Virus record (IMG/VR): IMGVR_UViG_2703718774_000012
From: a virus
Taxonomy: Duplodnaviria; Heunggongvirae; Uroviricota; Caudoviricetes
Strand: one strand, 5' to 3'
Length of the DNA stretch: 64,000 bases
In this document: positions 4,458 to 31,579 of the stretch, piece after piece
Layout of the letters: each line of letters begins with the position of its first letter
Numbering within the stretch: position 1 is the stretch's first letter
Notes under the pieces: model-generated
The model's input: only the letters and a program-made list of their open reading frames with translations
What the model was told of the DNA's origin: nothing
Database searches by the model: none
Translations under genes and position numbers: made by a program

Positions 4458-4485
4458 TCTTTGTTAGCTATAGCTTTAAACAAAT

Positions 4486-5022: not shown

Positions 5023-5808
5023 ATCACTTTCCACTTCTCCCGTGGTGTTTTCTTGCAGTTCTGTTAATGCAGCACGACATAGGTTCCGGGCATTGGCTAT
5101 AGCCACACTTTTGACTTCATCCGTCATCGTGCAGGTAATGTACTGATCTAGTTCTTCATCGCGGATGATGCTTTTGCCAATCAGAAACTGTATTTGCCAG
5201 AGCAGATCGGCATCCATAATCAGAATTTCTGCCGGGCCTTCAGGGCCAGCCGGGAAGGAAACATAAGACTGTTTGCCCAGGCCGACAACTCGACAACTTG
5301 CTTCAAGAATTGCGCGCTTGAGGTCTGACTTTATAACGGAAACAGGTTGATTTTCACCAGTGATTACGCCGTTGACATGGAAAGGCATGTAGCTTGAAAT
5401 TCGCTCTACTTTCCATACGCCAGCAAGCGATCCTTCATGCAGCACAATGGGGGTAACCGCGAGTTTCATCTCACCATATAACTGCTGGCAGATAGCTGGA
5501 TTGCTGAATACATCCAAAGGTTCACACTCAAACAGCGGCGCAATCTGCATGAGGTCCATCATGGTCATCCCTGGGGTACGAGCAGTAATGAATCTGCGCA
5601 TACCAGTATCCATTGCGCTCCAGATTGCTACACCATGCTTTTTGCTCACTTCTTCAGTAAAGCCAAGGTGGCACATGATGGTTTTTTCGATAGCCAGATC
5701 AGAGATAGAAACCTTTTCGCCTGGCACTCCATCATTATTGACGGTCACTTCGACACTCTGGCCATTACGTAGGCGGTATTGAATGGTTTTAGTATTTTGT
5801 GCTGTCAT
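5020..5808 (-). CDS. hypothetical protein (262 aa)
   Basis: ORF track; downstream of ssb on same strand; no motif recognised. Confidence 0.6.
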   Translation of the reverse strand: MTAQNTKTIQYRLRNGQSVEVTVNNDGVPGEKVSISDLAIEKTIMCHLGFTEEVSKKHGVAIWSAMDTGMRRFITARTPGMTMMDLMQIAPLFECEPLDVFSNPAICQQLYGEMKLAVTPIVLHEGSLAGVWKVERISSYMPFHVNGVITGENQPVSVIKSDLKRAILEASCRVVGLGKQSYVSFPAGPEGPAEILIMDADLLWQIQFLIGKSIIRDEELDQYITCTMTDEVKSVAIANARNLCRAALTELQENTTGEVESD

Positions 5809-6005: not shown

Positions 6006-6494
6006 TCAAAACGGAATATCGTCGTCAAAGTCCATTGGAGGTTCGTTATTAGCGTTGCTCTGAGGTTTACCGCCACCACTGTATTGCTGGTGGTTTTGAG
6101 GTTGGTTTGATTGCCCCCAGCCATTTGTGGACTGTGAATCGTCGCGACGAGCGCCGATCATTTGCATGGTGCCGCCCTGGCTGACGATAATTTCCGTCGT
6201 GTAACGTTCTACACCGGCGTCATCTGTCCACTTACGGGTTTTAAGTTTCCCTTCGATGTAGACCTGAGAACCTTTTCGTAAATACTCACTCGCAATTTCA
6301 GCAAGTTTTCCGAACAAAACGACTTTATGCCATTCTGTTTGCTCTTTCTGTTGGCCCGTTTGCTTGTCGCGCCATGATTCATTCGTTGCGATGCTGAGTC
6401 TTCCGACCGCGCCGCCATTTGGTATATACCTGATCTCCGGGTCTTGCCCCAGGGTGCCAATCAGGATGACTTTGTTTACACCGCGTTGTGCCAC
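6006..6494 (-). CDS. ssb: single-stranded DNA-binding protein
   Basis: [20 protein letters not shown]... OB-fold N-terminus and acidic tail DFDDDIPF; GTG start. Confidence 0.95.
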
Positions 6495-27978: not shown

Positions 27979-29022
27979 TTATCTAACGCTCGACGAGTGA
28001 CTTGTGATAGCGCCGACTCCAAGCGCGTAATCAAAGAACAATCGTTGATGCATCGCCAGCCTACCGTGCGTCTTCTCCCAATTATCGCGGTCACGCTCAA
28101 TATCACGCTGGCATGACTGGCACAGAGGAATTGCGTAAATGTCATGCGCGCATAATCGACTATGACGAACGATATAAGGCGTAATGTGAGCGCCAGCTCC
28201 CGCAGCTCCACACCCACAGCATGGACGGGAAGCAACAAAGTCCATGTACTCAGGTAATTTTAGCGATTGCAGTTTTGGTATTTTGAAATGCGCCATGCCA
28301 GGGTCGGAGTCAACATCCACAGGGCATACTTTTGCACGCATCGGCGCGGCGCGTTCTTCCATCATCTGAACATATGCTGTAGCGCGATCGTCATACGGGC
28401 GAATATCCGCCTCTTTCAGAGGTCCGCTATCCTGCGTTGCGGCTTTCATCTTATTTATTGATATACGGCAAACTTCTTCCGGCATCAGGTGCATCATGTT
28501 GCGCATGAAAGCCCACCAGCACAGTTCCTGAATACTTAAATCATGGCCATCTGAAAGCCCCATTTCCTGACGGGCGACATCCAGTATCCAGTTAACGCGA
28601 TTATTATGCAGCGTTTCTTTCAGCTCATTAAAACCACGCATCCGGTAATGGTTATCGTGATGCCAGCACAACAACACCGCGCTATTGTCTCGTTCTGCGT
28701 GGACAATATGGTTGTCACACCAGCTACGATCTGCGGCCTGGCATTGCCCCTCTTTCCTGCGCAACCACGCCACCAGCGCGTCAATTCCACCAATACGGCG
28801 AAACAGTTCATCGCTGTTAAAAAACGGCTGCAACGCCTCATTTGTTGCCATAGTTTGCTCGGAAACAACGAGGCCGTCGTCCATGTGCTCGATTAACTCA
28901 CGCGGCACCGGCTCCATAATAAATTTACGGCCAGCCTCCACCAGCTTTCTGACTTCCTGATCCACTTTGAATGTGGCGACGCCAAGCTCTTTTTGTACAA
29001 AGGGAGTAATTACGGCTTTCAC
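27979..29022 (-). CDS. Cys-rich hypothetical protein (347 aa), downstream of doc
   Basis: ORF track; cysteine cluster CCGCG...CAHD...CQSCQ. Confidence 0.65.
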
Positions 29023-29049
29023 ATCACACCTTTCATCACTGATTGGGCT

Positions 29050-29250
29050 TTATCTGCTGCCCGGCATTCTCTGTTTAAGCACAACCATTTCCTGACGGCA
29101 TAACACAGCAATAGCGGTCCTGGCACCAATTTGCTTACCAACCAGGTATTGCTTTACCTCGCGGCGACTCACGCCATCAAGAAGCATCTTTAACGCTTCA
29201 CGGGACAATTTGTTGTATTTACGTGCCATTAATCTACTCCGCGGAACCAT
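29050..29250 (-). CDS. small hypothetical protein (66 aa) overlapping doc 3' end
   Basis: ORF track only. Confidence 0.35.
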
Positions 29251-29614
29251 ACAATCTACGTAACGTGTCGGCGACAGAAGATACAGATATCTCTCCGGTC
29301 GCAGCCCCTACGGTAAGGTCTGCCAGTTCAGGTGTATCAAATACCTGCACCCCGTTACGGCGTAGAAATAACAGCGCACTGTTTAGCGCGGTACGCTTAT
29401 TGGCATCATTGAATATATGCCCTCTCGCTGTAGCCACCAGGTAGGTGGCGGAGACTTCGAAAAGGTCGCTGATCTCTTCGTAGGCAACTCTGGCCTGAAC
29501 TCTCCCGATAATGGCCTCTGCCCTACCCGGATCTGACATTCCCGGCAGGCCACCGTAGCGGCTTATATTCGCATCATGAAGCGCAATAAGTTCTTCCGGT
29601 GATATATGCCTCAT
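29234..29614 (-). CDS. doc: Doc toxin (126 aa)
   Basis: [25 protein letters not shown]... matches recalled P1 Doc; start overlaps phd stop. Confidence 0.95.
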
Positions 29615-29835
29615 TATCGGTTAACCAGTTCCTTGTTGGTGGAGTCCAGGGTGTCAAACAGGGATGCAAATTCGGCATCCAGCGCCGCTTTTTTGTAGGC
29701 TTCAAAAGTAGCCTTGCTAACAATTACTGCTGGCTCACGGCCTCTGCGGGTGATTTCAACCTCTTCCCCGGCTTCAACATTGTTGAGCACTTCAGAAAGG
29801 TTGCCGCGCGCGGTACGGAAGTTAATGGATTGCAT
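29614..29835 (-). CDS. phd: Phd antitoxin (73 aa)
   Basis: [39 protein letters not shown]...; start at ATG 29835. Confidence 0.93.
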
Positions 29836-29943
29836 AAACACCTCGTGTGCTCGTTATGTGTACGCAATTATAGGTTTTAATGATGCTGAATACCACTTCT
29901 TGGTGCCTTAAATCCTCGAGATGCAGTCTTGCAATTGCTGGGA

Positions 29944-30366
29944 TTAAGCAGAATAAGTGGTTGGAATTCTGAGCAGTAATCCAATCTTGGCTATGTGCTC
30001 ATATGGCAGCTCTCCGGTTTTACCGTCATGTATCGAGGCTATCAGATTCAATTCTTGCGCCGCTTTACGAATTTCAGTTTCTGATGGAACAAGGCGAAAA
30101 CCGATGTGTAACATTTTGATATAGAAAGGTAATAGTTCGTACTTCACCCGTAACTGTGCTGCCGCATCTTTCAAATCATGGATGATTTCTTGTTTTAAGT
30201 CAGAGCGGGGATTCGATAGCTTTGCTTGGTTAGACAATAACAGATGCGATATTTCCCCCAACTGTTCCTTGAATGAAATGTAAGACTCAACCCCCTTGAT
30301 GATGAGTCGACCTAGGACAAAAACGCTTACTCCAGTGACAACAGTGACAAAAGCAGACGAACTCAT
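29944..30366 (-). CDS. membrane-anchored hypothetical protein (140 aa)
   Basis: N-terminal TM helix SSAFVTVVTGVSVFVLGRLII; GC about 41%. Confidence 0.6.
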   Translation of the reverse strand: MSSSAFVTVVTGVSVFVLGRLIIKGVESYISFKEQLGEISHLLLSNQAKLSNPRSDLKQEIIHDLKDAAAQLRVKYELLPFYIKMLHIGFRLVPSETEIRKAAQELNLIASIHDGKTGELPYEHIAKIGLLLRIPTTYSA

Positions 30367-30500
30367 TCGCGTACCTAAAAAGAGAATTATAACCTCATCT
30401 TATCTTCAAGTGAGTAACCGCGTCTAATGGGAGTAATCATTTAAATGGCCAGGGCGATATAGATCCAGTCATGCCTCTCTATGGTTTCTCTGAAAACAAA

Positions 30501-30890
30501 TCATATAGCAGGACTATCATCAAATTCACCGCCCCTGGCGTCATTGATAATGTGGGTGATCACACCAAAAACAGCATTACTGCCCGTGTATCCATCGTCA
30601 TCTACTGGTAACGCCTCTTTCTTCCCGGTGCTTAAATCCTCCAGGTGCTGGCGCGGATACTTTCGGTATCTCTTTATGCGATATTCACCCTCCATAGCGC
30701 AGACAAGCAGCGAACCATCAACCGGAGTAAGCGAGGAATCAACCACCAGCAAAGCACCCTGCAATATTCCCTCACGGTGATGGCTGTCTGCCGCCCGCAT
30801 GAAGTAGGTCGCTGATGGATGCCTGATTAGTTGCTGATCAAGAGAAATTCTGCTTTCAACATAATCCGCCGCAGGAGAAGGGAAGCCCAT
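30501..30890 (-). CDS. humD: UmuD-like SOS mutagenesis protein
   Basis: UmuD/LexA-type peptidase-like sequence; LexA box directly upstream. Confidence 0.8.
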   Translation of the reverse strand: MGFPSPAADYVESRISLDQQLIRHPSATYFMRAADSHHREGILQGALLVVDSSLTPVDGSLLVCAMEGEYRIKRYRKYPRQHLEDLSTGKKEALPVDDDGYTGSNAVFGVITHIINDARGGEFDDSPAI

Positions 30891-30911
30891 AGCGTTTTCA
30901 CCTCAATAATA

Positions 30912-30927
30912 CTGTTCATTTATACAG
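30912..30927. promoter_or_regulatory. LexA (SOS) box upstream of humD
   Basis: CTGTTCATTTATACAG fits CTGT-N8-ACAG. Confidence 0.8.
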
Positions 30928-31011
30928 TATACATTAAAGAGACACCTTTGGTGCAAACTCGTTATGTACACCAACCACCGCAGATGATTTTGTGCGCTTT
31001 GCTACTATTCA

Positions 31012-31290
31012 TCACCAATGGATCAGCGTAATCTCATTGCCAATCTGCAGAATTTTATCCACCAGCGATGTGATTTTTTCTGCCAGGTCATCATTACTTA
31101 CCCAATCCTGGCGGGCAGCCAGAACGGGCGACAAGGCTAATATTAACTCTCGTCGTAATGATACGTTCCTTGCTACAGGCGGAATACGTGGTGCTGGTGG
31201 TGGTTTAAGCCCCTCGCTCCCCTGTATTTCTGGAGTATTCGGCTGATAGCCATTAGTTATTTTCGGCGGTATTGGACGAGGACGAAACAT
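31012..31290 (-). CDS. hypothetical Pro-rich protein (about 92 aa)
   Basis: Track ORF 31012..31410; likely start at internal ATG 31290 just after the stop of the upstream gene. Confidence 0.4.
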   Translation of the reverse strand: MFRPRPIPPKITNGYQPNTPEIQGSEGLKPPPAPRIPPVARNVSLRRELILALSPVLAARQDWVSNDDLAEKITSLVDKILQIGNEITLIHW

Positions 31291-31294
31291 CGCG

Positions 31295-31579
31295 CTACCT
31301 CCTACACTCAGGGCAGGTGTTCCCTTCCGCAAAGTAGGGGAAACTGCTATCAAGTTCATCACACCATCTGCGATGCTCGTAGCACCAAAAAGCCTCCCAC
31401 GGTAAACCAAAAGACTTCATCCACCGGGACACTCGATCTGGTATATCTGCTGGTGGCAGTTCTTCTGGCAAGAATTTGCCTGATAATTCCCTTTCCGCCC
31501 GTGCCAGCATTCCTTTTAGACTCGCATTCTCTTTTTCAAGAATCTCTATGCGCGCCTGTAACTCAGCTTTCGTTGGCAT
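31295..31579 (-). CDS. hypothetical protein with C-terminal CxxC pair (about 94 aa)
   Basis: Track ORF 31295..31660; likely start at ATG 31579. Confidence 0.4.
   Translation of the reverse strand: MPTKAELQARIEILEKENASLKGMLARAERELSGKFLPEELPPADIPDRVSRWMKSFGLPWEAFWCYEHRRWCDELDSSFPYFAEGNTCPECRR

Follow-up and report, generated by a model that had tools for sequence, protein, structure and literature searches.

An accessory gene between humD and phd of D6-type phage-plasmids, its predicted inner-membrane protein and a possible role in phage exclusion

Introduction

The described small anchored superinfection-exclusion (Sie) proteins include the lactococcal Sie2009-type proteins, HK97 gp15, T4 Imm and P22 SieA (compared in this work by description, not by sequence), and most such small proteins are taken to work at the periplasmic side of the membrane or inside it. 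Also relevant are anchored abortive infection (Abi) proteins and effectors (AbiP-type proteins, and the transmembrane effectors of retrons or CBASS), as well as the P2 morons old, tin and fun, the last of which lies between the tail-fibre genes and the sheath gene. The position between gpA and the portal gene of P2-like prophages is the old/tin defence hotspot (PMC9122126, PMC9519451), and the fun locus of P2 has been described as a second defence hotspot (PMC9519451). Phage-plasmids and plasmids preferentially exchange such genes (PMC10879196), and in P4 hotspots six out of eight randomly chosen unknown loci were protective against phage (PMC13586616).

Here we analyse one open reading frame (ORF) in a 64,000-nt stretch of DNA from a virus of the Caudoviricetes (IMG/VR record IMGVR_UViG_2703718774_000012), which we call the window. 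A preliminary description of this DNA, made from the letters and their translations, had pointed to a stand-alone gene for a 140-aa protein with one N-terminal membrane helix, located between phd-doc and humD, and had guessed at superinfection exclusion or abortive infection. It proposed a topology prediction, a remote-homology search and an alignment of the humD-phd junction, and held that presence of the gene in canonical P1 with a known housekeeping role would speak against the guess. The ORF has already been deposited as a hypothetical protein; the novelty lies in framing it as a candidate, from a family without a studied member, for an accessory membrane protein borne by prophages or plasmids and probably involved in conflict between mobile elements.

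Results

The humD-phd junction in D6-type and P1-type elements

The ORF (29944-30366, minus strand, 140 aa) has an ATG start, a TAA stop and an intact frame, and proved to be a single gene with no conserved partner. It starts 134 bp downstream of humD (30501-30890, minus strand; UmuD'-like), and the phd-doc toxin-antitoxin module (29234-29835, minus strand; phd at 29614-29835 and doc at 29234-29614) follows 108 bp downstream of it. A scan for terminators found no such site in the gap on either side of the ORF, towards humD or towards the module, the sole terminator-like site being upstream of humD.

In P1 the two modules are adjacent, as the preliminary description had said, and 13-36 bp separate the humD stop from the -35 and -10 hexamers annotated for the phd promoter (Pphd). 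The alignment of the junction shows P1 homology to the window at 29100-29872 (97.8%) and at 30511-31045 (94.4%); because this homology breaks at 29872 and 30511, 638 bp of the window (29873-30510, GC 41.6%) stand for 45 bp of P1. This D6-type-specific segment is absent from P1-type elements: it is missing in P1, P7, SJ46 and RCS47, where the humD stop abuts the phd promoter. The ORF is absent from these four, canonical P1 included, and from JL22 and others, and among deposited phages D6 alone carries it (98% identity to the window over the ORF region; annotated as 'orf109, hypothetical protein'). A 100% match to the window at the ORF region is found in an 89.6-kb E. coli plasmid (NZ_CP058684.1), and the humD-ORF-phd arrangement is present in 34 PLSDB plasmids. 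The humD-ORF-phd-doc block (29048-30981 of the window) is intact in several IMG/VR contigs with mosaic flanks, and about 30 plasmids and several viral contigs of this kind conserve the ORF at 99% or more, with the block kept.

The base composition of the ORF (GC 42.1%) and of the D6-type segment agrees with the 'about 41%' given earlier, and differs from that of the window (47.9%), humD (50.3%) and phd-doc (51.6%). That the D6 lineage of P1-like phage-plasmids acquired the ORF horizontally, as an accessory gene (moron) placed between humD and phd, is well supported. Like P2 old, tin and fun, it stands alone, is absent from close relatives, is wedged between conserved neighbours that are adjacent in those relatives, and has a lower GC content than its surroundings (42% versus 50-52% in humD and phd-doc); it may also share with them a promoter of its own. 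It has no sequence relation to these morons or to any validated hotspot system, no terminator of its own was found, and its function is a predicted one.

The left breakpoint of the segment lies immediately upstream of the -10 hexamer (TATAAT) of Pphd (29867-29872, minus strand), where P1 homology ends. This sharp boundary is widely shared: phage phi456, in which a type I restriction-modification gene takes the place of humD, breaks at the same point, as do more than 1000 plasmids that hold the phd-doc module alone. As the match of all these to the window ends at 29872, lineages differ in the -35 region of Pphd. Another mosaic joint lies upstream of humD at 30945-31293: homology between the window and D6 is interrupted from 30944 until 31294, that with P1 reaches no further than 31045, and in related IMG/VR contigs the break is at 30944 or 30981.

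The predicted protein and its family

Using the Kyte-Doolittle scale with 19-residue windows, we found a hydropathy peak of 2.19 at residues 5-23 and no second hydrophobic segment. Because windows above 1.0 occur at the N-terminus only, the product should have one membrane helix and no other (approximately residues 4-24), followed by a helical domain, which agrees with the single helix of the preliminary description. Across 40 family members the flank before the helix is 2-4 residues long and almost without positive charge (0.1 positives), and the 19-20 residues from the end of the membrane helix carry 2.9 positives; K24 is conserved. From these flank charges and the established positive-inside rule, the bundle should be cytoplasmic. 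The ORF product is thus predicted to be a single-pass inner-membrane protein in the N-out/C-in orientation, with one hydrophobic helix of about 20 residues and its positive charges on the C-terminal side. In its AlphaFold model (pLDDT 85; helices 3-45, 59-77, 96-113 and 121-132), the fold is a membrane anchor that continues into a generic four-helix bundle.

The remote-homology search yielded a large family of 999 cluster representatives and a match to PHROG 7512, but no family of known function. PHROG 7512 is the sole library match of the product (full length, E = 1.2e-77, residues 1-140 on profile positions 1-141) and is also matched by 40 of 40 sampled family members; since it has no annotation, membership is a label without a function. 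Scans against Pfam, NCBIfam and PADLOC gave no match (PADLOC-DB 2.0: 0 families at E<=10), and no annotated PHROG or solved structure matched. A profile search of PDB sequences returned coiled-coil and helical noise (best E = 0.002, a C-type lectin neck), Foldseek with the model returned weak, non-significant resemblance to assorted phage membrane proteins, and a Pfam scan of 40 relatives gave scattered matches only, all with E>0.05. By these library tests, the ORF product is outside the known exclusion, Abi and hotspot families in sequence and in predicted fold.

The protein resembles the Sie-type proteins in its size class (about 100-190 aa), its N-terminal anchor, its residence in a temperate element and the expected presence of the product in the lysogen. 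It differs from most of them in that its bulk is predicted to be cytoplasmic and that no library links it to Sie; in the library scans no characterised Sie protein proved related to it in sequence or fold.

Eighteen close homologues, all enterobacterial, came from a word-indexed search. The family reaches far past enterobacteria, a point beyond the preliminary description: an exhaustive profile search collected the 999 representatives at E<=1e-3, and 224 at the stricter E<=1e-10; with few exceptions they are 130-160 aa long. Pseudomonas members came from the profile search with names and sources, Chromohalobacter and Acidobacteriota members from a genome scan (run with a narrow alignment of the family, which gave only 6 genome loci), and metagenomic members from both. 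Ten positions are conserved in at least 90% of 40 members (G12, V13, Q20, P28, S40, L44, P94, N107, L132 and Y138); in the D6-type copy, Q20 is replaced by R and P28 by S, and a residue next to the anchor is missing.

The ORF protein is under purifying selection: pairwise dN/dS against homologues of 36-74% identity is 0.10-0.53, counted where dS is unsaturated. The existence of full-length homologues together with these ratios shows that the ORF is a real gene and not a chance reading frame. Opposite-strand ORFs at the locus are short. An RNA encoded by the segment instead of a protein was also considered, and there is no sign of one (no Rfam match in 29000-31300). In one homologue, P0014 (231 aa), the protein is fused after residue ~130 to a stretch that resembles the C-terminal maturase part of a group II intron RT; reading of the sequence suggests that an intron is inserted into the homologue gene in that contig.

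Expression signals

Upstream of the ATG, the motif TAGGTAC (30371-30377, minus strand) includes a Shine-Dalgarno-like AGG 8-10 nt before the start and is conserved in the upstream alignment of homologous loci. A candidate sigma-70 promoter (30386-30426, minus strand) consists of a -35 TAGACG (30426-30421), an 18-nt spacer and a -10 TAAGAT (30402-30397); it is collinear with the plasmid homologues, whose promoter-like counterpart is TAGACA-17 nt-TAGGAT. A perfect TATAAT is also present at 30391-30386, 19 nt before the ATG. The upstream homology with homologous loci is significant (its score was reached by 0 of 2000 shuffles). An automatic consensus promoter scan reported no promoter near the ORF, so the promoter is read from the sequence, and the ORF probably carries its own sigma-70-type promoter.

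A LexA-box-like site (CTGT-N8-ACAG, 30912-30927, plus strand) lies 22 nt upstream of the humD start, and a LexA site is annotated at the corresponding position of P1. SOS-controlled read-through into the ORF is possible, since no terminator follows humD and this site lies upstream of it. Five CTGT-N8-ACAG sites occur in the window (30912-30927, 23018, 34387, 54689 and 297), versus 0.64 expected by chance.

The arrangement raises an SOS-linked reading, in which the ORF would encode a membrane function co-expressed with humD or umuDC (division delay or envelope change in DNA damage). The ORF is on the humD strand, 134 bp downstream of that gene, with no terminator-like site between them. Several plasmids have umuDC 1-4 kb upstream of the homologue and on its strand, and in Serratia umuDC is 3.6 kb from the homologue; yet the ORF keeps a conserved candidate promoter of its own, and most contexts of the family (P2-like, lambdoid, IncF, Pseudomonas and metagenomic) have no umuD-like gene nearby, which makes this reading quite improbable.

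No C1 operators or P1 late -22 boxes were found in 29841-30520. Because neither lies near, the ORF is probably expressed in the carrier (plasmid-prophage) state, a timing deduced from these sites.

Genomic contexts of the homologues

In every locus sampled the homologue is a stand-alone gene, without a neighbour that is conserved from one context to the next. Three classical positions in prophages are among them. In a Klebsiella P2-like prophage (L034/L035), the homologue is between gpA (Phage_GPA) and the portal gene, beside a ParE/HTH pair; in another P2-like prophage (L058), it is between the tail-fibre genes and the sheath gene on the opposite strand; and in lambdoid prophages (Atlantibacter and relatives), it has the replication genes (P or DnaB-like) on one side and ninB on the other, and runs opposite to all neighbours. 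The family therefore resembles P2 hotspot cargo in occupying both the gpA-portal hotspot and the tail-fibre/sheath site; the P2-hotspot location is that of homologues with 51% and 39% identity, not of the window copy. In a Serratia phage-plasmid the homologue comes after the tail-fibre region, and in 50-68-kb phage-plasmids with an IncFII-type RepA it lies between helix-turn-helix genes.

A lytic-cycle role (antiholin-like lysis timing, or membrane-associated help in replication or assembly) might be suspected of a small membrane-anchored helical phage protein with a weak, non-significant Foldseek likeness to phage membrane proteins. We regard it as most improbable: the neighbours of the ORF are humD and phd-doc rather than a lysis cassette, neither Pfam nor PHROG gave a holin or antiholin match, and no P1 late-promoter box is present. 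Moreover, the ORF is absent from viable P1, P7 and other close relatives, and its homologues run opposite to the early and late operons in lambdoid and P2-like prophages and are abundant in plasmids without phage genes.

Homologues are carried by 346 PLSDB plasmids, and most of these carriers are conjugative (264/346), which the preliminary description had not foreseen; they include ColV-type IncF, IncX4 and other IncX-like plasmids. Pseudomonas homologues lie in islands bounded by serine recombinases, further homologues are at metagenomic loci, and one set of distant members is found among ordinary chromosomal, housekeeping-type genes.

Several homologues have defence genes as neighbours. In Salmonella plasmids the cassette adjoining the homologue holds AbiD (PADLOC 5e-59), 270 bp upstream of one homologue is a type IV methyl-directed restriction enzyme (PADLOC 6e-54), a retron-type 2TM effector-like protein is 0.5 kb downstream of another (PADLOC 8.5e-10), and an MmeI-type enzyme with an ISL3 transposase is immediately upstream of a further one. 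DuOB, DUF488 and mSLOG conflict-system domains are also among the neighbours. The ORF protein itself resembles anchored Abi proteins and effectors in combining an anchor with a cytoplasmic domain, and in some loci its homologues adjoin AbiD and the 2TM effector-like gene; it differs from them in having a single membrane helix, no PADLOC match and no associated sensor gene. The guess of superinfection exclusion or abortive infection thus stands in part: it fits the contexts of the homologues (P2 hotspots, lambdoid site, AbiD, restriction enzymes), but the library scans described above (PADLOC, Pfam, NCBIfam, annotated PHROGs and structures) gave the protein no match.

The spread over plasmids also suits a cargo that benefits the host or plasmid and is unrelated to phages (envelope-stress tolerance, bacteriocin immunity or membrane-protein modulation), as hotspots take every cargo. 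Consistent with this, the many conjugative carriers include ColV-type IncF plasmids with the homologue beside the sit operon, one homologue is 2.4 kb from the microcin J25 cluster, and some distant members keep housekeeping-type company. Weighed against it are the positions at three classical lysogenic-conversion/defence sites of P2-like and lambdoid prophages, the homologues directly beside AbiD, restriction enzymes and similar genes, and the lack of any consistent linkage to a bacteriocin or transport locus; we consider such a cargo unlikely.

Toxin-antitoxin pairs of several families are often near homologues, and so is umuDC. The ORF could accordingly be an accessory partner of neighbouring toxin-antitoxin or stability modules (a membrane modulator or sensor) that serves element maintenance. 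Besides phd-doc downstream of the ORF, Phd/ParE is immediately upstream in Salmonella plasmids, ParE/HTH accompanies the homologue in the Klebsiella P2 hotspot, a Gp49/HTH_37 pair is 650 bp off in the 50-kb phage-plasmids with IncFII-type RepA, and RelE/ParE is 2.7 kb from the Serratia homologue. However, the toxin families and their order, strand and distance all vary, many copies have no toxin-antitoxin pair nearby, and such pairs are themselves common hotspot cargo. P1 phd-doc is, as is well established, fully functional without the ORF. A partnership of this kind therefore seems improbable.

Two further neighbourhoods were observed. The homologues of a ColV-type IncF plasmid (L014) and an IncX4 plasmid (L041) keep the same two neighbours, a divergent protein of 159 aa (L014 5326-5805, L041 10220-10699) and a protein of 500 aa (L014 7785-9287, L041 7564-9066), neither with a Pfam or PADLOC match; these three genes may form a conserved neighbourhood in the ColV-IncF/IncX4 lineage. 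In umuDC plasmids (L065 5289-5856 and 6527-7150), three further small proteins without a known family, each predicted to lie in the membrane (82, 91 and 207 aa), flank the homologue, making up with it a cluster of anchored proteins downstream of umuDC. The small genes beside the homologues in L065 and L029 were also considered as Phd/ParE-type pairs, and no similarity was found.

A repeated border site around plasmid homologues

On plasmids, a ~45-bp site, TTAATCCCCGCGYCASC-CTGGACRTWCAGGTNATTCTGTCCAG, borders the homologues at either end, with its copies in one orientation; the core of the site is a 26-bp imperfect palindrome. Arrays of 3-4 copies mark off consecutive single-gene units, e.g. 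AbiD, the homologue and an 84-aa gene. Copies are at 5657, 6940, 7458 and 7986 in L025/L027; at 6940, 7458 and 7986 in L024; at 4379, 4617 and 5018 in L031 (pKpQIL; three within 0.64 kb); at 4476, 5506, 5914 and 6526 in L019; and at 6455, 10164 and 10727 in L041. Two plasmid lineages share the left arm of a hybrid site and diverge inside its central 14 nt, the pattern that a crossover there would leave.

The site is present in 1436 PLSDB plasmids, and genes for ResD-family tyrosine recombinases are 0.2-3 kb off in most site-bearing loci (in some, a resolvase is ~1 kb off). These features suggest a recombination site for the exchange of single-gene cassettes on enterobacterial plasmids. A likeness to the rfsF site of F and R64, seen by eye, was dropped, since the similarity is not significant (p>0.3) and the ResD regions of F and R64 hold no copy. 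We found no paper that gives the sequence of the site; searches with accession numbers and with the site sequence returned nothing relevant.

Within 8 mismatches, the window holds no copy of the site. A possible degenerate relic at 30424-30453 (minus strand) is collinear in the alignment, with p about 0.26 alone, and a downstream relic is not significant; the window copy thus keeps the cassette promoter and leader, with a doubtful border-site relic. One could see in this a decaying passenger without present function: the cassette sites that flank the D6 copy are degenerate, and the two substitutions at nearly invariant positions and the one-residue deletion beside the anchor would fit. The intact frame, the conservation of at least 99% in about 30 plasmids and several viral contigs with mosaic flanks, and the conserved promoter and Shine-Dalgarno-like motif argue to the contrary, and we hold decay to be very improbable.

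Discussion

We tentatively propose, as a reading that is quite possible, that the ORF, as a mobile moron of the D6 lineage, serves to exclude phages or defend against them at the inner membrane, a function deduced from context. Defence or exclusion is ranked first because the family occupies lysogen-expressed anti-phage positions and lies beside defence genes, and in view of the published work on gene exchange and on P4 hotspots (PMC10879196, PMC13586616). The alternatives are ordered as non-phage cargo, toxin-antitoxin or stability accessory, SOS-linked function, lytic-cycle role and decaying passenger, the last two being weak.

Under the proposed exclusion or defence role, the D6 lineage would have acquired the ORF horizontally, and the gene would be expressed from its own promoter, with read-through from LexA-controlled humD also possible. 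In its product, the 2-4 residues before the single membrane helix would lie outside, and the anchor would continue into a cytoplasmic four-helix bundle of ~115 residues. The protein would guard the carrier cell against other phages, and thereby the resident element too, as part of the conflict between mobile elements. The action at the inner membrane could be either a block of DNA entry (exclusion) or triggered membrane damage (abortive infection).

A broader proposal covers the whole family and is, in that full form, doubtful: PHROG 7512 would be a widespread single-gene anti-phage family whose membrane-anchored cytoplasmic four-helix bundle senses infection or blocks genome entry. Its members would be own-promoter cassettes that move between P1-like, P2-like and lambdoid hotspots and plasmids, and in plasmids they would lie within arrays of single-gene cassettes bounded by the undescribed ~45-bp recombination site.

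If the cassette exchange is real, it would help explain the shuffling of small defence and stability genes between plasmids and phage-plasmids. If the family protects against phages, the humD-phd junction would be a cargo site in P1-like elements, beside the P2 and P4 hotspots, and the family would be a very small single-gene system, frequent among the plasmids and prophages of E. coli, Salmonella and Klebsiella. Since it is already common (346 PLSDB plasmids, ~1000 family clusters), such a system would bear on the host range of phages in therapy and on competition between phage-plasmids.
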